DNA of 7,881 bases from a virus (Duplodnaviria; Heunggongvirae; Uroviricota; Caudoviricetes). The DNA is taken from IMG/VR virus record IMGVR_UViG_3300029498_000057; one strand, given 5' to 3'. The first letter of the stretch is position 1. Each line of letters begins with the position of its first letter. The translations under genes were made by a program, and so were the position numbers. A model generated the notes under the pieces. The model was not told the DNA's origin. It saw nothing but the letters and a program-made list of their open reading frames with translations, and did not search any database. Below are positions 1-7,881 of the stretch, piece by piece.

Positions 1-67
1 CCCGTTTTCCTGTCATCAGGTCATGCAGTGCCGCACGGGCAGCGGCAAGTTCTTCCTGTCGCGTCAT
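1..67 (-). CDS. W: Head-tail joining protein W (gpW), N-terminal 22 codons only; gene continues beyond the window start
   Basis: Reverse complement of 1..67 translates to [22 protein letters not shown], which I recognise as the start of phage lambda gpW. Its ATG (67..65) overlaps the TGA stop of the terminase large subunit gene (66..64) in an ATGA arrangement. Absent from the ORF track because it is cut by the window edge. Confidence 0.8.
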   Translation of the reverse strand, partial: MTRQEELAAARAALHDLMTGKR

Positions 68-1989
68 TCATCCTCTCCGGATAAGGCACGGGCGTAATCT
101 GCCAGTGTTTTCTTGTTGGTTGCTGCACCATCCTCTTCCTGCAGGCTCGCCAGCAGCGCACTGAGATCCAGCTGCCAGCGGGAAATACTGATGCGCAGCG
201 CCGCCAGCGCATAAACGAAGCAGTCGAGTGCCTCATTGCGTCGCTTTTTGCTGTCCCACAGTATTTTTTTCCTGCCATCCACCCATTTTTCGACCTGCTC
301 TTCAGCAGTCAGCTGCTGCGCTTCGGTCAGATCAAAAATATCCGGGTTATTCGGGAAGTGAACGGCACCGGGAAGCGGTTCATCCCCTTCCGGCGTCAGT
401 GTGAAGCGGTTATAAATCTGCTCTTTCGCGGTATCCGTACCGATTTCGGTAAGGTAAACCCCGTTTTTGTTTCGCTTACGTGGCATGCTGGCCACCGGCT
501 TTCCGTAGACGGATGCCCCTTTAATGGGGATCACCCGGAACAGCCCATGTTTTTTCGAGCGTTCATACACAATGGTCGGGTCAATCCCGCCAGTATCCCA
601 GCAGATACGGGATACCGACATCTCTGCACCATTCCGGCGGGTATAGGTTTTATTGATGGCCTCATCCACACGCAGCAGCGTCTGTTCATCGTCGTGGCGG
701 CCCATAATAATCTGCCGGTCAATCAGCCAGCTTTCCTCACCCGGCCCCCATCCCCATACGCGCATTTCGTAGCGATCCAGCTGGGAGTCGATACCGGCGG
801 TCAGGTAAGCCACACGGTCAGGAACGGACGCTGAATAATGCTCTTTCCGCTCTGCCATCACTTCAGCATCCGGACGTTCGCCGATTTTCGCTTCCCATGT
901 CTCACCGAGCGTGGTGTTCACGAAGGTTTTACGTTTTCCCGTATCCCCTTTCGTCTTCATCCAGTCTTTGACAATCTGAACCCAGGTGGTGAACGGGCTG
1001 TACGCCGTCCAGATGTGAAAGGTCACACTGTCCGGCGGCTCAATCTCTTCACCGGATGACGAAAACCAGAGAATGCCATCACGGGTCCAGATCCCGGTCT
1101 TTTCGCAGATATAACGGGCATCAGTGAAGTCCAGCTCCTGCTGACGGATGACGCAGGCATTATGCTCGCAGAGATAAAACACGCTGGAGGGATCATCCGG
1201 CGTCCATTTGAGGCCAAACGGCGTCTCTTTATCGCCAAATTTAAGGTACTGCTCCTCCCCACAGTGCGGGCAGGCAACATGAAAACGCATAAAATGCGGG
1301 GATTCACTGGCTGCACGCTCAATCTGGCAGGTGCCTCTCACTTTGGGCGTGGAGCCACGGATGGACTTTGGCCAGACCGAGCCTTCAATACGCTTATCGC
1401 CCAGGAACGTTGGAGAGCCTTCCTGTTCAATATCCTCATCAAAGGCAGCAAGTTCATCATAACCCGCCACATCCACTGACTTTTCACGGTAGTTTTTTGC
1501 CGCTTTACCGCCCAGGCACCAGAAGCCACGCCCATTGGTGAAACGCTTCATGGTGAGCGTGTTATCCCGGTGCTTTTTGCCATACCACGGGGCCAGCGCC
1601 AGCAGCGACGGAATATCACGAATAGTCGGCTCAACGTGGGTTTTCATAAAGTTCTCGGCATCACCATCCGTCGGCAACCAGATAAGGGTGTTGCGCTGCT
1701 TATGCTCTATGAAGTAGGCATAAACACCCAGCAGCATTTTGGAATAACCGACACGGGCAGACTTCACCACATTCACCTCACGGATGTAGTCGCTGCCCAT
1801 CGCATTCATGATGGCCCGCTGAAAGGGCAGTGTTTCCCAGCGCCCTTCCTGGTATGCGGATTCTTTCGGGAGATAGTAACTGGCATCCGCCCATTCAACG
1901 GCAGTCTGTGGCTCCGGCCTGAACAGGGCTCGCAGCCCGGCGCGTACATCACGCCGCAGAATATCAATCTGACTGTTCGATATATTCAC
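64..1989 (-). CDS. A: Terminase large subunit (lambda gpA-like), 641 aa, apparently intact
   Basis: 641-aa ORF; translation (MNISNSQ...[18 protein letters not shown]...[37 protein letters not shown]) is near-identical along its length to lambda gpA as I recall it, including the Walker-A-like KSARVGYS segment. Same length as lambda gpA. Start overlaps the 3' end of the small-subunit gene by 26 nt, as in lambda. Gene order W-A-Nu1-cos matches lambda. Confidence 0.97.
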
Positions 1990-2509
1990 TCAGCAACCCC
2001 GGTATCAGTTCATCCAGCGCGGCTGCTTTGTTCATGGCTTTGATGATATCCCGTTTCAGGAAATCAACATGTCGGTTTTCCAGTTCCGGAAAACGCCGCT
2101 GTACCGAGAGAGGGATCCCGTCAAGAATACTGGCAATTTCACCTGCGATCCGTGACAGCACGAAAGTACAGAATGCGGTTTCCACCACCTCTGCGGAGTC
2201 TTTGGCATTCTTCAGCTCCTGTGCGTCGGCCTGCGCACGCGTAAGTCGATGGCGTTCGTACTCAATAGTCCCAGGCTGGAGATCTGCCTCACTGGCAGCC
2301 CTGTAATCCACAACCTCTTTACGGAGTTTTTCATTTTCGATATCAGCTTCCCTCTGCGCATACCACTGAATTGCCATGGCGGTATCAAATACAGATTCAA
2401 CGCCCTTACCACCTCCGGAGACGCAAGGGAGTCCCTGAGACTGCCAGCGTTCAATCGTTCGCGGATCCACGTTGAAAATTTCGGCAAGTTTCTTTTTATT
2501 AACCTTCAT
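1964..2509 (-). CDS. Nu1: Terminase small subunit (Nu1-like), 181 aa; C-terminal two thirds lambda-like, N-terminal DNA-binding region divergent (phage 21-like)
   Basis: 181-aa [32 protein letters not shown]...; from about [19 protein letters not shown] to the C-terminus it matches lambda Nu1 as recalled almost residue for residue, and the first ~70 aa are related but clearly different. Sits directly downstream of a cos site and overlaps the A gene. Confidence 0.95.
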
Positions 2510-2519
2510 GAAACAGTCT

Positions 2520-2685
2520 CACAATAAATACAGGGGCCGACATGAAAGTGCCCGAAAATGACTTTTTTAGGCGTTTTCATGTCGGACCTTTTACGGATTC
2601 GATATTAGAAAAAACAAATAGTTATGTTCGAGAAGTACCGACATGATTTTCCCCGGAAAATTTTCATAAATAGCGAAAACCCGCG
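2520..2685 (-). promoter_or_regulatory. cosB (terminase small-subunit binding region) with three R-type repeats (core CATGTCGG) and an A/T-rich I1-like segment
   Basis: Between cosN and the Nu1 start codon. On the minus strand the 8-mer CATGTCGG occurs direct at plus 2638..2645 (R3 position), inverted at 2578..2585 (R2 position) and direct at 2537..2544 (R1 position). This reproduces the direct/inverted/direct R3-R2-R1 architecture of lambda cosB, but the repeat is not lambda's CGTTTCC-type motif. The segment between R3 and R2 (minus strand CATAACTATTTGTTTTTTCT) resembles the lambda I1/IHF region CATAACTTAATGTTTTTATTT as I recall it. Confidence 0.75.
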
Positions 2686-2697
2686 AGGTCGCCGCCC
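2686..2697 (-). other. cosN: 12-nt cohesive-end region (minus strand GGGCGGCGACCT)
   Basis: Reverse complement of 2653..2697 is GGGCGGCGACCTCGCGGGTTTTCGCTATTTATGAAAATTTTCCGG, which is identical to the first 45 nt of the phage lambda genome (left cohesive end) as I recall it. Confidence 0.85.
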
Positions 2698-2753
2698 CGT
2701 AACAGCCCGGATCGCCGGAAAGGACCCGCAAAAATGATAATGGTTATCATTTT
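2698..2753 (-). other. cosQ-side region of cos (lambda right-end-like), including a 10-bp perfect inverted repeat
   Basis: Minus-strand sequence ATGATAACCATTATCATTTTTGCGGGTCCTTTCCGGCGATCCGGGCTGTTACG immediately precedes cosN and closely resembles the last ~55 nt of the lambda genome (...GATGATAATCATTATCACTTTACGGGTCCTTTCCGGTGATCCGACAGGTTACG, from memory). Plus 2731..2740 AAAATGATAA and 2744..2753 TTATCATTTT form a perfect inverted repeat with a 3-bp spacer. Confidence 0.6.
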
Positions 2754-2950: not shown

Positions 2951-3418
2951 TTATTTCAGGCACTGAGTGCGGATATATTCCTGCGCCACTTCCAGCTGCT
3001 TCTGCATCAGCATCAACCGCTCTCTGAGAGTGAAATAATCCCGTTCAGCGGTGTCTGCCAGTCGGGGGCCGGTTGCATTATCCACGCCGGAGGTGGTGGG
3101 GGCTTCACGCACGGTACCGGGGCAGGTGGCGTTGATCCGCAGGCGCTTACGACCAGCGGCAACGTCAGCGCGCAGAGTTTCATTTTCAGCTCTCGCATCG
3201 GCTAATTCCCTCGAGTATCTGGCATCAAGTGCAGCAACATCACGCTGGCGCTGCTGCATATCAGTAATGGTTGCATTTGCCTGCTCCAGCTCACTGACTT
3301 TTTTATCGCGCTGCTCTTTGTAGGTTATGGCGTTATCACGGTAATGATTCAGCCCCAGACTAAGCGCACCACAGGCCACCAGCAGGGCAATGATGACCAC
3401 GCACAGTACGCGGTTCAT
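2951..3418 (-). CDS. Rz: Spanin inner-membrane subunit (i-spanin, Rz-like), 155 aa
   Basis: 155-aa ORF with an N-terminal transmembrane segment (VLCVVIIALLVACGALSL) followed by a charged, coiled-coil-like region. Clear similarity to lambda Rz (shared NHYRDNAITYK, ITDMQ.RQRDVAALDA, GVDNA..PRLADTAERDYFTLRERL). Contains an embedded +1-frame Rz1 gene and lies last in the lysis cassette. Confidence 0.93.
   Translation of the reverse strand: MNRVLCVVIIALLVACGALSLGLNHYRDNAITYKEQRDKKVSELEQANATITDMQQRQRDVAALDARYSRELADARAENETLRADVAAGRKRLRINATCPGTVREAPTTSGVDNATGPRLADTAERDYFTLRERLMLMQKQLEVAQEYIRTQCLK
3013..3198 (-). CDS. Rz1: Spanin outer-membrane lipoprotein subunit (o-spanin, Rz1-like), 61 aa, entirely embedded in Rz in another frame
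   Basis: 61-aa ORF MRELKMKLCALTLPLVVSACGSTPPAPVPCVKPPPPPAWIMQPAPDWQTPLNGIISLSESG. Has a lipoprotein signal with lipobox ending at Cys20 and a proline-rich mature part; closely matches lambda Rz1 (CVKPPPPPAWIMQPPPDWQTPLNGIIS). The true start may be the internal Met6. Confidence 0.9.
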   Translation of the reverse strand: MRELKMKLCALTLPLVVSACGSTPPAPVPCVKPPPPPAWIMQPAPDWQTPLNGIISLSESG

Positions 3419-3419
3419 T

Positions 3420-3518
3420 TCACCACCAGCGTATCTGACCGATGAAATAACCGGAGGCCATAATCACAAACACCAGCCAGATAAGAATGAACTTCCAGGT
3501 GGATAATTTTTCAGCCAT
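3420..3518 (-). CDS. Hypothetical small hydrophobic protein (32 aa from ATG 3518; 45 aa if the in-frame GTG at 3557 is used), translationally coupled to Rz
   Basis: Not in the ORF track (below its size cutoff). Minus-strand reading gives MAEKLSTWKFILIWLVFVIMASGYFIGQIRWW then TGA (3422..3420), one nucleotide before the Rz ATG (3418..3416). An in-frame GTG at 3557..3555 is preceded by AAGGAG at a 5-nt spacing; the ATG at 3518 is preceded by GGGAG. One predicted transmembrane helix. No homolog recognised. Confidence 0.4.
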   Translation of the reverse strand: MAEKLSTWKFILIWLVFVIMASGYFIGQIRWW

Positions 3519-3593
3519 CACTCGAATCTCCCGAATCAGTTTGCTAAAATCAAACACACTTTCTCCTTTGACTTTTCCAGAGTCAGGAAACAC

Positions 3594-3716: not shown

Positions 3717-4250
3717 TTATCTGTCGATACCCCAGCACGCCAGCGCGCTCTCCTGGTCACGACGGGATACCTGACCGTAGCAGTTGTTTGAACGAATACG
3801 GCAGTCTCTGCCACCGTCCTTAATCCACCAGCGAATCGCCTCACACGCTCCCCTGCGATCACCTGCATTAATTCGTTTATAAAACGTCGACGGGAAACAC
3901 TTACCGGGACCAATGTTGTACGGACAGAATGACGCGATCCCCGCTTTCTGGGGTTCGCTCAATGGCACTTTGATGTTTTTCTCCACCCATGCCAGCGCCT
4001 TATCACGCTCAATGGCGTTAACCCGGTCGCATTTTTCCTTCGACAACTTCATGCCCGGAACGACAGGTTTGCCATCCACCAGGATGGCACCGCGGCAGAT
4101 GGTCCAGATACCCGCGCCATCACGGTATGCCGTGGTGTGGTTACCTTCCTTTTCATCCAGAAACTGGTCGAGAATGTCAGGCGCAGGCGCACCAGCGGCA
4201 ATCAGCGCCAGAACGGCAGCCGACAGGCCGTATTTGATTTTGGTGTTCAT
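3717..4250 (-). CDS. R: Endolysin, GH24 (T4-lysozyme-like) family with an N-terminal SAR/signal-anchor-like segment (R of 933W/Qin type), 177 aa
   Basis: 177-aa ORF MNTKIKYGLSAAVLALIAAGAPAP... followed by the lysozyme catalytic region EGNHTTAYRDGAGIWTICRGA (Glu-8aa-Asp-5aa-Thr pattern). The N-terminal Gly/Ala-rich weakly hydrophobic stretch is typical of SAR endolysins. Strong resemblance to the prophage endolysins I recall from Qin (RrrQ) and Stx2 phages. Lies between the holin and Rz. Confidence 0.93.
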   Translation of the reverse strand: MNTKIKYGLSAAVLALIAAGAPAPDILDQFLDEKEGNHTTAYRDGAGIWTICRGAILVDGKPVVPGMKLSKEKCDRVNAIERDKALAWVEKNIKVPLSEPQKAGIASFCPYNIGPGKCFPSTFYKRINAGDRRGACEAIRWWIKDGGRDCRIRSNNCYGQVSRRDQESALACWGIDR

Positions 4251-4313
4251 GGATATTTATCAGGATTTATCGGTTTCTGCCCACGGACAGGTTTATCTGT
4301 TCCGGTCAGTGAC

Positions 4314-4664
4314 TTAAGGTTGTGATTCCGGAGGAGTCTTCAGAGAACCAGTAATTCTTCCCGGTAGCTTTCCTTTGTAGGTTATCCATACATTCTGCGC
4401 CTCTAAAATTACGGGGCGCTTTTCCGGCGACTGCTCATCCCCTTCACATAACCCGGCAGCAACATCCAGGAAGACCTGTCTGATGCTCATTCTGGCTGCT
4501 GCCTCATAAAACTCCAGCGCGGCACCTTCAACACGGTCCAGCGAGATGTCCAGGTCAAAAATTTCACCGTCAAAGCGTTTTTTGTCCCGTAACGCTAAAG
4601 TTACCGTAACTTTATTCTCAAAATTGCGGATCCCTTTCACAATCAGTTCATAGTTTTGAGTCAT
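4314..4664 (-). CDS. ydfR: YdfR-like protein of unknown function (DUF1327-type, family name from memory), 116 aa, inserted between holin and endolysin
   Basis: 116-aa ORF MTQNYELIVKGIRNFENKVTVTLALRDKKRFDGEIFDLDISLDRVEGAALEFYEAAARMSIRQVFLDVA... Start is 4 nt after the holin stop and preceded by GGGGAGAG. The N-terminal ~75 aa resemble E. coli K-12 Qin prophage YdfR as I recall it, which sits in the same position. No transmembrane segment and no catalytic motif recognised. Confidence 0.85.
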   Translation of the reverse strand: MTQNYELIVKGIRNFENKVTVTLALRDKKRFDGEIFDLDISLDRVEGAALEFYEAAARMSIRQVFLDVAAGLCEGDEQSPEKRPVILEAQNVWITYKGKLPGRITGSLKTPPESQP

Positions 4665-4668
4665 TGAA

Positions 4669-4884
4669 TTACTCTCCCCGTGCCGCCTTACGACGGTCCT
4701 CTCTGATTTTGAAATACAGGTTAGTCAGATATGTCAGCAGCCCAAACAGCAGACTCCCCAGCACGCCTATTGCCGCCCACTGAGACGGGGAAACCCTGTC
4801 CAGCAACTGCAGGAACCAGTAGCCCGTTCCCACCGCTGACGTGGTGTATGACACACCTGTTGTGATTTTTTCCATCTGGTCCAT
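4669..4884 (-). CDS. S: Class II holin / pinholin of S21 (phage 21 / Stx-phage S) type, 71 aa, with dual-start motif
   Basis: [71 protein letters not shown]: two transmembrane segments and a charged C-terminus, near-identical to S21/933W S as recalled. Met1 and Met4 give the dual-start arrangement; GGGAGA lies ~8 nt upstream of Met1. The ORF track's 108-aa version (4669..4995) is an upstream over-extension that runs into the IS66 terminal repeat. Confidence 0.9.
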
Positions 4885-4903
4885 ACCCCGTCTCCCGTTA
4901 TCC

Positions 4904-4929
4904 GTAACCGGCTCATTTAAACCGTCTGG
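4904..4929 (+). repeat. IS66-family left terminal inverted repeat (IRL), approximate extent
   Basis: GTAACCGGCTCATTTAAACCGTCTGG aligns in inverted orientation with the right end GTAAGCGACTCGTCAGAACCGTATTG (shared GTAA.CG.CTC...AACCGT.T). Boundary placed by the family's characteristic GTAA terminus; exact inner extent uncertain. Confidence 0.6.
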
Positions 4930-4956
4930 TCTGTTTCCTCCGGCTCTACAAAAATA

Positions 4957-5634
4957 ATGTCCATCATTTTTAATGGACACTATCGTATGAAACACCGGAC
5001 CTGGATCACTGAAGCTTTACGTCTTCACTTTGAAGAACATTTACCCCGGGTTGTGGCCGGGCGTCGCCTGGGTGTACCAAAATCAACAGTTTGTAGTATG
5101 TTCGTGCGCTTTCGGAGAGCTGGCCTTTCGTGGCCTTTGCCCGCAGGCATGTCGGAGCAGGAACTTGATGCCTGCCTTTACGGACAATTTTCCACGGTAC
5201 CAGTCGTACGTCCTGAAAGCACCGTTATATCCGAAGCCCCCGTGGTAAAAAAACGTCCCCGGCGGCCCAACTTCCCTTATGAGTTTAAAATCGCCTTAGT
5301 GGAGCAGTCACTGCAGCCCGGAGCCTGTGTGGCGCAGATCGCCCGGGAAAACGGAATCAACGATAACCTGCTCTTCAACTGGCGCCATCAATACCGGAAA
5401 GGTGGCCTGCTGCCTTCCGGAAAAAATATGCCGGCACTGCTTCCCGTGACGTTAACGCCGGAGCCGGATAATAAAATCCCGGCCCCCGCACAGGAACCAG
5501 AGCAGATAAATACACCGTCCGACAGTCTGTGTTGTGAGCTGGTTCTGCCGGCCGGAACTCTCAGGCTTAAAGGTAAACTGACGCCGGCGTTATTACAGAC
5601 ACTTATCCGCGAAATAAAAGGGAGCAGCCACTGA
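4957..5634 (+). CDS. tnpA: IS66-family accessory protein TnpA (Orf1) with an N-terminal helix-turn-helix-like extension, 225 aa
   Basis: The C-terminal half contains the IS66 Orf1 signature ([49 protein letters not shown]). The N-terminal ~100 aa carry an additional HTH-like segment ([21 protein letters not shown]). The start codon is uncertain: ATG 4957, or an in-frame ATG 30 nt downstream. Stop overlaps the tnpB start. Confidence 0.8.
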
Positions 5635-5981
5635 TGATATCTCTCCCTGCAGGTTCGCGTATCTGGCTGGTTGCAGGTATCACCGATATGCGAAATGGCT
5701 TTAACGGCCTGGCATCAAAAGTTCAGAACGTCCTGAAGGATGACCCGTTCTCCGGACACCTGTTCATCTTCCGCGGACGCCGGGGTGACCAGATAAAAGT
5801 GTTGTGGGCTGACAGTGACGGACTGTGCCTCTTCACCAAACGCCTGGAGCGGGGCCGCTTCGTCTGGCCAGTCACCCGTGACGGCAAGGTGCACCTTACT
5901 CCGGCTCAGTTATCCATGCTTCTTGAAGGTATCAACTGGAAGCACCCGAAACGAACGGAACGCGCTGGAATCCGCATATAA
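5634..5981 (+). CDS. tnpB: IS66-family Orf2 (TnpB accessory protein; not the IS200/IS605 TnpB nuclease), 115 aa
   Basis: [79 protein letters not shown]... is the highly conserved IS66 Orf2 sequence pattern. Its ATG overlaps the upstream stop (TGATG), a typical translational coupling in this family. Confidence 0.93.
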   Translation: MISLPAGSRIWLVAGITDMRNGFNGLASKVQNVLKDDPFSGHLFIFRGRRGDQIKVLWADSDGLCLFTKRLERGRFVWPVTRDGKVHLTPAQLSMLLEGINWKHPKRTERAGIRI

Positions 5982-6000
5982 CCCGTTGTAAAGTGAGGAT

Positions 6001-7572
6001 ATGGACACCTCACTTGCTCATGAGAACGCCCGCCTGCGGGCACTGTTGCAGACGCAACAGGACACCATCCGCCAGATGGCTGAATACAACCGCCTGCTCT
6101 CACAGCGGGTGGCGGCTTATGCTTCCGAAATCAACCGGCTGAAGGCGCTGGTTGCGAAACTGCAACGTATGCAGTTCGGTAAAAGCTCAGAAAAACTTCG
6201 TGCAAAAACCGAACGGCAGATACAGGAAGCACAGGAGCGAATCAGCGCACTTCAGGAAGAAATGGCGGAAACGCTGGGTGAGCAATATGACCCGGTACTG
6301 CCATCCGCCCTGCGCCAGTCTTCAGCCCGTAAACCGTTACCGGCCTCACTTCCCCGTGAAACCCGGGTTATCCGGCCGGAAGAGGAATGCTGTCCTGCCT
6401 GTGGTGGTGAACTCAGTTCTCTGGGATGTGATGTGTCAGAGCAACTGGAGCTTATCAGCAGCGCCTTTAAGGTTATCGAAACACAACGTCCGAAACAGGC
6501 CTGTTGCCGGTGCGACCATATCGTGCAGGCACCAGTACCTTCAAAACCCATTGCACGCAGTTATGCCGGAGCGGGGCTTCTGGCCCATGTTGTCACCGGG
6601 AAATATGCAGACCATCTGCCGTTATACCGCCAGTCAGAAATATACCGTCGTCAGGGAGTGGAGCTGAGCCGTGCCACACTGGGGCGCTGGACAGGTGCTG
6701 TTGCTGAACTGCTGGAGCCGCTGTATGACGTCCTGCGCCAGTATGTGCTGATGCCCGGTAAAGTCCATGCTGATGATATCCCCGTCCCGGTCCAGGAGCC
6801 GGGCAGCGGTAAAACCCGGACAGCCCGGCTGTGGGTCTACGTCCGTGATGACCGTAACGCCGGTTCACAGATGCCCCCGGCGGTCTGGTTCGCGTACAGT
6901 CCGGACCGGAAAGGTATCCATCCACAAAATCACCTGGCCGGTTACAGCGGTGTGCTTCAGGCCGATGCTTACGGTGGTTACCGGGCGTTATACGAATCCG
7001 GCAGAATAACGGAAGCCGCGTGTATGGCTCATGCCCGGAGAAAAATCCACGATGTGCATGCAAGAGCGCCCACCTACATCACCACGGAAGCCCTGCAGCG
7101 TATCGGTGAACTGTATGCCATCGAGGCAGAGGTCCGGGGCTGTTCAGCAGAACAGCGTCTGGCGGCAAGAAAAGCCAGAGCCGCGCCACTGATGCAGTCA
7201 CTGTATGACTGGATACAGCAACAGATGAAAACACTGTCGCGTCACTCAGATACGGCAAAAGCGTTCGCATACCTGCTGAAACAGTGGGATGCACTGAACG
7301 TGTACTGCAGTAATGGCTGGGTGGAAATCGACAACAACATCGCAGAGAACGCCTTACGGGGAGTGGCCGTAGGCCGGAAAAACTGGATGTTCGCGGGTTC
7401 CGACAGCGGTGGTGAACATGCGGCGGTGTTGTACTCGCTGATCGGCACATGCCGTCTGAACAATGTGGAGCCAGAAAAGTGGCTGCGTTACGTCATTGAA
7501 CATATCCAGGACTGGCCGGCAAACCGGGTACGCGATCTGTTGCCCTGGAAAGTTGATCTGAGCTCTCAGTAA
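6001..7572 (+). CDS. tnpC: IS66-family transposase TnpC (Orf3), 523 aa
   Basis: 523-aa ORF preceded by GTGAGGA. Has an N-terminal coiled-coil/leucine-zipper-like region, a Cys-rich zinc-finger-like motif (CPACGGEL...CRCDH) and a large catalytic core, typical of IS66 transposases. Ends ~30 bp before the right terminal repeat. Confidence 0.93.
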
Positions 7573-7576
7573 ATAT

Positions 7577-7602
7577 CAATACGGTTCTGACGAGTCGCTT
7601 AC
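7577..7602 (-). repeat. IS66-family right terminal inverted repeat (IRR), approximate extent
   Basis: Reverse complement of 7577..7602 is GTAAGCGACTCGTCAGAACCGTATTG, beginning with the canonical IS66-family terminal GTAAGCG and matching the left end at about 18 of 26 positions. Confidence 0.6.
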
Positions 7603-7881
7603 AAGAGGAACGAGAACCATTCATAGAGCCTAACACACTAAATGCCGCATTGAATCCCACGACTCGGCACGATCAACGTAAGATAATCGGAGCTTGCTGC
7701 ATGGTGACAAATGGAAAATGTGAAGGTAAAGAAAACGACATTACTAACTGACGTTTGTATCTAACACTGGGGACAGGTCACCTTGAATCGATGGAAGTCT
7801 CATTATGGATTTGCCCCTATATTTCCAGACATCTGTTATCACTTAACCCATTACAAGCCCGCTGCCGCAGATATTCCCGTG

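Follow-up and report, generated by a model that had tools for sequence, protein, structure and literature searches.

Lambda 21hy51 is a hybrid phage that was selected in the laboratory from lambda × 21 crosses (Frackman, Siegele and Feiss, 1985, as cited in PMC4669245 and PMC9026076) and has been in use since 1985. As outlined in PMC4669245, it carries cosB of phage 21 together with the 5′ part of gene 1, which encodes the helix-turn-helix and is joined in frame to lambda Nu1's 3′ part, giving the chimeric small terminase subunit TerS-hy51; according to the same account this hybrid works with lambda gpA and is viable and 21-specific. The positions that discriminate between lambda and 21 are residues 20 and 24 of TerS and bp 56 and 59 of the R3 site in cosB (Feiss et al., 2015, PMC4669245). 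Here we describe a window of 7,881 nucleotides (IMG/VR record IMGVR_UViG_3300029498_000057, Caudoviricetes) which very probably holds the site where DNA packaging begins in a lambda-like prophage of E. coli, in the form of a natural lambda/phage 21 hybrid. With phage 21 (M81255, OL657228; PDB 7LWR) the locus shares the R3-I1-R2-R1 layout and its distances, the TCATGTCGG core of the R sites, and a TerS DNA-binding domain that is 87-91% identical in amino acids, recognition helix included, and it differs from 21 in that its TerS is of lambda type from codon 72 on and its large subunit is that of lambda. With lambda (J02459; PDB 1J9I, 6HN7) it shares cosQ, cosN, the first 45 bp, the overall architecture and the Nu1/A overlap, whereas lambda has CGTTTCC-type R sites in cosB and a DNA-binding domain of only 58% identity.

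Organization of the cos site

The cos site and the terminase genes all lie on the minus strand, so that position p from the left end corresponds to window coordinate 2698-p (Table 1). For cosN we presume an extent of about 22 bp, as for lambda. The cosQ heptamer was kept in all ten aligned sequences.

Table 1. Positions of cos subsites, terminase genes and the joint in the window
Feature	Position	Strand	Remarks
cosQ, GGGTCCT	2721..2727	-	Packaging-termination subsite, -30..-24 from the left end; heptamer and offset as annotated in phage 21 OL657228
cosN nicking region	2681..2702	-	Identical to lambda and 21
12-nt cohesive end, GGGCGGCGACCT	2697..2686	-	12-nt end annotated in OL657228
45 bp from the left end, including the I2 region	2653..2697	-	Positions 1-45 identical to lambda
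cosB R3, AATCATGTCGGTACTT	2633..2648	-	Left-end bp 50-65; of 21 type and placed like the R3 annotated in 21
Putative IHF site I1, AAACAAATAGTTA	2612..2624	+	Between R3 and R2; one mismatch to WATCAANNNNTTR
cosB R2, TTTCATGTCGGACCTT	2575..2590	+	Inverted relative to R3 and R1; homologous and identical to 21 R2
cosB R1, TTTCATGTCGGCCCCTG	2531..2547	-	Homologous to R1 annotated in 21
Nu1 (TerS), whole gene	1964-2509	-	181 aa
Nu1 codons 1-71, winged helix-turn-helix DNA-binding domain	2297..2509	-	Phage 21 type
Crossover interval, Nu1 codons 71-72	2294..2298	-	Left-end bp 400-404
Nu1 codons 72-181, part for oligomerisation and for binding TerL (gpA)	1964..2296	-	Lambda type
Large terminase subunit gpA, full length	64..1989	-	641 aa; lambda type; Pfam GpA_ATPase and GpA_nuclease

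A preliminary description of this DNA had taken the 45 bp at the cohesive end as identical to lambda and the cosQ-side flank as lambda-like, and both statements hold: the identity runs from 2697 down to 2653, and the flank has four differences from lambda, at -10 to -7, in a spacer that is variable among relatives too. Phage 21 differs at four of the 45 positions (18, 24, 42 and 44), all of which have the lambda state in the window. On this basis we considered a further crossover, at bp 45/46 between cosN and R3, and set it aside, given that four sites, their power limited by a divergence of the adjoining block from 21 of about 10-15%, cannot separate a crossover from derived changes specific to 21. 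Nor is such a crossover required, because PhiR5_1, which represents a third lineage, has the lambda state at three of the same four sites. The left boundary of the 21-type block may instead reflect the conservation of cosN.

In cosB, the preliminary description had noticed three repeats with a non-lambda core in a direct-inverted-direct layout, which is borne out. The motif CATGTCGG is found five times in the window against 0.36 expected, a count reached by none of 200 shuffles, and three of the copies lie in cosB (2638-2645, minus strand; 2578-2585, plus; 2537-2544, minus). As 16-mers, the R sites read AATCATGTCGGTACTT (R3), TTTCATGTCGGACCTT (R2) and TTTCATGTCGGCCCCT (R1); an inverted repeat, I3, pairs R2 with R3, and a direct repeat, D1, pairs R1 with R3. 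Aligned to the annotated cosB of phage 21, this cosB is 84.6-86% identical, and the offsets of R3, I1, R2 and R1 from the left end are those of 21 save for a 1-bp indel between I1 and R2. R3 has G at both bp 56 and bp 59, as in 21, where lambda has T and C, and its sole difference from the R3 of 21 is an A for G at bp 54, the A matching the core of R2 and R1. Moreover, the CATGTCGG repeats are kept in every examined phage or prophage that has the same N-terminal domain. I1 is assigned by position, which is homologous to that of the I1 annotated in 21 (bp 74-86). The IHF consensus itself was rejected as independent evidence, with seven matches in the window against 4.9 expected, a difference that is not significant, and hence only the positional homology of I1 is used. 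A further, fourth copy of CATGTCGG is located in the 3′ part of Nu1 at 2068-2075, in lambda-derived sequence, and is present in lambda too; the idea that it acts as an R site at a distance, in the manner of rR2 of N15, finds no support.

Judged from sequence, the cohesive end and cosN, the spacing of cosQ, and the R3-I1-R2-R1 order of cosB with an inverted R2 all have the form of a lambda-like cos, and the reading frames of Nu1 and gpA are both intact. We regard it as highly likely that the locus is a functional-type cos site and terminase operon in a lambda-like prophage.

A single joint inside Nu1

The small subunit matches the Pfam family Phage_Nu1 (PF07471) over the entire profile (E = 9.6e-90, positions 1-164 of 164), and its two parts have different affinities. 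Residues 1-71 are 87.3% identical in amino acids to gp1 of phage 21 and 57.7% to lambda Nu1, and the same holds for the third codon positions, which match 21 in 58 of 71 codons and lambda in 26 of 71. Residues 72-181, on the other hand, are 97.3% identical to lambda and 49.1% to 21, with 316 of 330 nucleotides matching lambda. These figures agree with the earlier suggestion that Nu1 is chimeric, with a divergent N-terminal domain of about 70 residues. The large subunit, which had been called lambda-type, is indeed 98.3% identical to lambda gpA and 64.4% to gp2 of 21. Both TerS, in its C-terminal half, and gpA being of lambda type, the two would form a TerS-TerL pair of lambda type. A lineage-specific patch is made up of gpA residues 8-21, where six substitutions relative to lambda are clustered, and Nu1 residue 181.

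The switch between the two types is sharp. In a three-way scan, the last informative site of 21 type is left-end position 400 and an unbroken run of lambda type starts at 404, which places the crossover at codons 71-72 and agrees with megablast matches limited to the lambda-like part of the junction, beginning at query position 115, or window 2296. Between positions 46 and 400, 123 of 139 informative sites have the phage 21 state, compared with 776 of 801 in the lambda state outside this block, and the maximum chi-square reaches 650.7, the highest value among 100 permutations being 47.1. In sliding 60-nt windows, the block has an identity of 0.69-0.93 to 21 and of 0.43-0.68 to lambda; past the block, identity to 21 lies at 0.33-0.90 (mostly 0.5-0.8) and identity to lambda at about 0.9-1.0, with one dip to 0.78 at the Nu1/A overlap. 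Positions 383-398 give a mixed signal that resembles PhiR5_1. From these comparisons, which cover three lineages, a contiguous block of about 355 bp (window 2652-2298) can with high confidence be assigned to the phage 21 lineage, whichever arrangement is ancestral. Within the block lie cosB (R3-I1-R2-R1) and codons 1-71 of the gene for the small terminase; what remains of Nu1, together with gpA, is 95-100% identical to lambda, and the 45 bp next to cosN are likewise lambda.

It could be argued that no recombination took place and that the N-terminal domain and cosB diverged rapidly from lambda under diversifying selection for a new specificity, given that DNA-recognition modules evolve faster than catalytic parts and that the boundary observed here is a domain boundary. 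We consider this highly improbable, because the block agrees with an existing lineage, that of 21, at the 123 of 139 sites mentioned above, including synonymous positions and the non-coding spacers between R sites, and because the switch takes place within about 5 bp. Uniform fast divergence without recombination is ruled out by the informative sites and the third codon positions. The proposal of a recombination joint inside Nu1 thus stands.

Structures of the DNA-binding domain (1J9I, 7LWR) span residues 1-54 to 1-68, and the joint falls just after them and before the TerL-binding region. Compared with 7LWR, the sequence of which is that of 21 TerS residues 1-54, 49 of the 54 residues are identical, and the recognition helix (residues 17-27) is identical to that of 21 gp1 and of 7LWR. 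TerS carries E20 and S24, as does 21, lambda having Q20 and E24, and with G56 and G59 in R3 all the published lambda/21 specificity determinants are in the 21 state. The cosB and the N-terminal domain are of phage 21 type itself, and no new specificity is predicted. The preliminary description had seen in this locus a natural counterpart of the lambda/21 specificity swap; the hybrid itself is supported, whereas its 21 origin had gone unrecognised, the swap being literally of the lambda/21 type. A single in-frame joint with a 5′ part of 21 type and a 3′ part of lambda type is also the make-up of TerS-hy51, with differences in detail. The 21 segment of lambda 21hy51, which we compare by its description, is given as about 600 bp or about half of the gene, the joint here being at bp 400-404. 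Furthermore, the donor of hy51 was phage 21, while the natural donor was a relative of 21 and not 21, with about 88-93% nucleotide identity in the coding part.

Distribution of the hybrid

Among 5,426 complete E. coli genomes, some 490-515 (approximately 9%) have the hybrid allele, O157:H7 included. The upper figure counts the 515 genomes in which 80% or more of a 1,061-bp query, running across cos and the joint, is covered; in addition, the junction region of phage 21 is matched over 96% of its length by about 487 records that show only 60-80% identity, the signature of the hybrid. The identical joint was found at five independent loci, O157:H7 among them, in line with a single origin, and the upstream neighbours vary by copy, being Rz directly, an anti-repressor, YlcI/PerC, or TonB/DUF3950. 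Escherichia phage IdasGreatGrand (PP925829), deposited as a complete phage genome with swamp mud as its source, carries this hybrid with an identical joint and is 97-100% identical in nucleotides across cos-Nu1-A; like the laboratory hybrids, it speaks for the viability of this architecture. The TerS of the window is 99% identical to that of IdasGreatGrand and to the E. coli prophage alleles WP_000867489 and WP_000867498, and it is set apart from them by a private E67V, along with a slightly different cosQ-cosN spacer. An assembly chimera was discarded as an explanation, since hundreds of complete genomes, and a sequenced phage as well, have the same joint.

The hybrid is thus neither rare nor unrecorded as sequence. 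A literature search for a prior description of a natural hybrid found laboratory hybrids only, and a mention in papers beyond those searched is possible. The hybrid is real and common, a natural version of a laboratory construct of the 1980s, and it introduces no new mechanism: the domain swap made in the Feiss laboratory, in which cosB and the DNA-binding domain of TerS are exchanged and the TerL-binding part is kept, also occurred in nature. The natural swap was fixed with a single joint and has spread to roughly one sequenced E. coli genome in eleven, EHEC serotypes with many lambdoid prophages among them. It offers an example of mosaicism at a protein-domain boundary, in which a DNA-binding domain is co-inherited with its sites.

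Predicted packaging specificity and state of this copy

From the lambda/21 literature we infer how the module would operate. IHF would bend the DNA at I1, and the 21-type winged helix-turn-helix domains of a TerS dimer would dock on the CATGTCGG sequences of R3 and R2. The lambda-type C-terminal part of TerS may then recruit the lambda-type gpA, which would nick cosN to give the 12-nt ends and translocate DNA toward Nu1 and A, that is, in the direction of descending window coordinates, with termination expected at the cosQ/cosN of the next cos. By analogy with lambda 21hy51, we predict that the module has the packaging specificity of phage 21 in combination with the head-assembly machine of lambda. 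By specificity of the 21 kind we mean that cos-21 DNA is preferred to cos-lambda DNA by a factor of more than 1000 in vivo, in the helper-packaging assay of PMC4669245.

Identity between the 21-like block and phage 21 amounts to only about 85-93%, and an altered or broadened specificity is conceivable because the wing loop, bp 54 of R3 and the 3′ flank of R1 differ from 21. The architecture might accordingly be of 21 type while the specificity is the module's own, distinct from both lambda and 21. At five positions the DNA-binding domain (residues 1-54) departs from 21, and four of these changes (V30, G32, G34 and V37) fall in the wing loop, which reads CVSGGGKGV here and CASKGSKGI in phage 21; R3 has A for G at bp 54, R1 has GGCCCCTG for GGGCCTTG, and cosB as a whole is only about 85% identical to that of 21. 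Related lineages with other R cores and helix residues, such as PhiR5_1 with D20/T24 and CATGTCA, indicate that specificity drifts in this family. Against this, helix 17-27, the R2/R1 core TCATGTCGG and both genetically discriminating base pairs are identical to 21, and the change at bp 54 brings R3 to the very core that 21 has in its own R2 and R1. We thus consider a distinct specificity unlikely, and equally so that the different wing loop, an R3 equal to the R2/R1 core and the N-terminal patch of gpA together make specificity or efficiency measurably unlike that of lambda and 21. If they did, for example through IHF independence or exclusion of true 21 DNA, the module would represent a further natural specificity class by which co-resident lambdoid prophages in EHEC avoid packaging one another. 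The hybrid may also help to predict mutual packaging among co-resident prophages, helper phages and cos-bearing islands. For annotation, the label "lambda-like terminase" does not imply the packaging specificity of lambda.

The copy in the window has been truncated. An IS66-family element (4904-7602) lies 18 bp upstream of the holin gene, where the prophage ends and unrelated island DNA lies beyond; the element, which lacks a target duplication, connects the holin gene with non-prophage DNA and is followed by an IS2 end. The late promoter region is therefore missing, and the prophage copy is probably unable to express its late operon unaided. One may therefore ask whether the module is an inert remnant in a decayed prophage, its cos and terminase genes out of packaging here, which we hold to be possible, if somewhat doubtful. 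Nu1, gpA, Rz, endolysin and holin are all full length, prophages whose late region is complete, such as AR_0372, have copies of the module at 99.7% identity, and an unexpressed cos would still be usable by a co-resident helper of matching specificity, as argued in PMC4669245. Decay of this kind would concern the state of the window's copy and not the identity of the module.

The cos site and its phage 21-type repeats

On its minus strand the window contains a lambda-like prophage's late region, with the cohesive-end sequence GGGCGGCGACCT at 2697..2686, so that left-end position p equals window coordinate 2698-p. A preliminary description had given the 45 bp at the cohesive end as identical to lambda and had seen three cosB repeats of common core in direct-inverted-direct layout, and both observations held: lambda identity is complete over left-end bp 1-45, where phage 21 differs at four positions, and the repeats R3, R2 and R1, predicted binding sites of the small terminase subunit (TerS; Nu1 in lambda, gp1 in phage 21), were located in that order. 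Their core, CATGTCGG, has five occurrences in the window where 0.36 would be expected, and no shuffle gave as many.

Features of the window, with cosQ in left-end numbering
Feature	Position	Strand	Remark
gpA	64-1989	-	
Nu1	1964-2509	-	
R1	2531-2547	-	CATGTCGG copy in cosB
R2	2575-2590	+	CATGTCGG copy in cosB
IHF site I1	2612-2624		near-consensus, between R3 and R2
R3	2633-2648	-	CATGTCGG copy in cosB
cosQ	-30..-24		GGGTCCT; same offset in lambda and 21
cos region			210 bp
Rz/Rz1	2951-3418	-	
Lysozyme	3717-4250	-	
DUF1327 gene	4314-4664	-	
Holin	about 4669-4885	-	phage-21 family
IS66-family element	4904-7602	+	

In a search of phage genomes, cosB showed 84.6-86% identity to annotated phage 21 cosB, and the lambda alignment was restricted to the cosQ/cosN end. 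The annotated R3, I1, R2 and R1 of phage 21 map to the window repeats at equal left-end distances, with a 1-bp indel after I1. Nu1 residues 1-71 share 87% identity with 21 gp1 and about 58% (58-58.6%) with lambda Nu1, and residues 72-181 are 97% identical to lambda Nu1, bearing out the chimeric Nu1 proposed from the sequence. Over 21 TerS residues 1-54, the sequence of PDB 7LWR, the window is identical at 49 of 54 positions; the recognition helix is the same, and the wing loop holds four of the five differences. Specificity of lambda versus 21 is set by contacts and clashes involving TerS residues 20 and 24 and R3 bp 56 and 59 (Feiss et al., 2015; PMC4669245), and the window has the phage 21 states at all of these (E20, S24, G56, G59). 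These determinants, together with the homologous sites and TerS domain, identify the CATGTCGG repeats as the phage 21 R sequence.

The lambda-derived 3′ part of Nu1 contains another CATGTCGG core, the fourth, oriented like R2 (window 2068-2075, plus strand; left-end bp 623-630), and lambda has this sequence too; it could by chance offer a 21-specific hybrid an additional TerS site, similar to N15's rR2. The short cosQ-cosN spacer (window 2698-2707, minus strand) varies to an unusual degree, unlike the invariant sequence on either side, reading GGCT at -10..-7 where lambda, 21 and most hybrids have ACAG, with still other variants in the E. coli copy AR_0372 and in phage PhiR5_1.

The recombination joint within Nu1

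In sliding windows, identity changes from 21-like to lambda-like close to window 2300. Among 940 informative sites, where lambda and 21 carry different bases and the window shares one of the two, the best two-breakpoint partition delimits left-end 46-400 (window 2652-2298), with 123 of 139 sites of 21 type inside this block and 776 of 801 of lambda type outside (chi-square 650.7; maximum over 100 permutations 47.1). The final 21-type site is position 400 and the first site of the lambda-type run is 404, so that the joint suspected inside Nu1 falls at codons 71-72. The 21-likeness extends to synonymous sites and non-coding spacers, which identifies the block as a product of recombination rather than of fast divergence; third codon positions match 21 at 58 of 71 and lambda at 26 of 71. 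Positions 383-398 give a mixed signal with likeness to the third lineage PhiR5_1, suggesting a donor related to 21 and not 21 itself. The left block edge (bp 45/46) may simply mark where the cosN region, which is conserved universally, comes to an end, and PhiR5_1 has three of the four lambda states within the first 45 bp.

The joint lies shortly C-terminal to the DNA-binding domain, whose solved structure covers residues 1-68 (1J9I), and precedes TerS's C-terminal half, which binds the large subunit (TerL; gpA in lambda) and carries TerL-binding specificity (PMC9026076). Codon 67 (window 2310), where the DNA-binding domain ends, has a private E67V change (GAG to GTG), not found in the five other hybrid copies examined.

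gpA is 98.3% identical to its lambda counterpart (10 of 641 residues differ). Six of these differences (I8, D9, I10, R13, D14, A21) fall within residues 8-21, in the Nu1/A overlap (window 1925-1989, minus strand), accompanied by Nu1 G181D; the patch is present in all five other hybrid loci and absent from lambda and a lambda-cosB Stx1 phage. This part of gpA is the one reported to contact TerS, and the cluster could represent a small third patch of mosaicism or could be linked lineage variation only.

Known hybrids, spread and proposed working

The window shares its architecture with the laboratory hybrid lambda 21hy51, whose left end, in the accounts of PMC4669245 and PMC9026076 citing Frackman et al. 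(1985), joins cosB-21, along with gene 1's 5′ part, to the Nu1 3′ part, and which is described there as viable, 21-specific and used for domain mapping; its 21 segment is given as about 600 bp, compared with 400 bp in the window. The lambda/21-like specificity swap proposed earlier is supported as an interpretation, but the foreign block had gone unrecognised as itself of phage 21 type, and the module is a natural, widespread instance of an already known hybrid kind. Its significance is modest, residing in the natural occurrence of a 21hy51-type architecture widespread in E. coli; in the part of the literature searched, no paper describing the natural hybrid was found.

The natural hybrid is not rare. 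Escherichia phage IdasGreatGrand carries the same module at 97-100% identity, and a 1,061-bp query running across cos and the joint is covered to at least 80% in 515 of 5,426 complete E. coli genomes. Against a phage 21 junction query, about 487 records bear the hybrid signature and about 584 are of pure 21 type. About 3,900 records are of lambda type, cryptic-prophage noh genes included. The joint and R sites are identical in five independent loci (AR_0372, O157:H7 H6437, E2865, DCE7 and IdasGreatGrand) while the DNA upstream of cosQ varies among them, which points to one ancestral event, after which the module spread. PhiR5_1 (PV340545, about 1206-1950) has a further cosB/TerS lineage, with R3 reading AAGCATGTCAGTTCTT, R cores CATGTC[A/G], D20/T24 in TerS, and a TerS C-terminus and gpA N-terminus matching neither lambda nor 21; this lineage is a candidate for a further packaging specificity among lambda-like phages.

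If the module works as its lambda and 21 homologues do, which is most likely, IHF would bend cosB at I1, a dimer of the 21-type winged-HTH domain would bind R3 and R2 across the bend, and the lambda-type TerS C-terminal part would position lambda-type gpA on cosN to nick, with packaging expected to run toward Nu1 and A. The cosN-to-R3 distance, which is reported to be critical (PMC4669245), is kept exactly in the window. The module is predicted to let 21 packaging specificity power a lambda head-assembly system, though this specificity may be altered by the small departures from 21 in the wing loop, at R3 bp 54 and in gpA residues 8-21.

State of the prophage copy

The IS66-family element (ISCro1-like), with three ORFs (HTH, TnpB_IS66 and DDE_Tnp_IS66), lies 18 bp from the start codon of the holin gene, on the upstream side. 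To its right, 7603-7806 matches an island region of other E. coli that is not prophage, followed by an IS2 end (7807-7881), and no 8-bp target duplication was found at the flanks 4896-4903 and 7603-7881 (CGTTATCC versus AAGAGGAA). The element beside the holin and the non-prophage far flank indicate that the prophage is truncated upstream of S and lacks the late promoter region, and it is probably defective; despite this truncation, neither the cos site nor either terminase gene is damaged. The lysis cassette (window 3717-4995, minus strand) is of phage 21 kind: the Pfam match of the holin is 'Bacteriophage P21 holin S', the DUF1327/YdfR gene sits between lysozyme and holin, and a hydrophobic stretch at the lysozyme N-terminus is suggestive of a SAR endolysin. 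A membrane-like ORF of 57 aa (3420-3593) precedes Rz.
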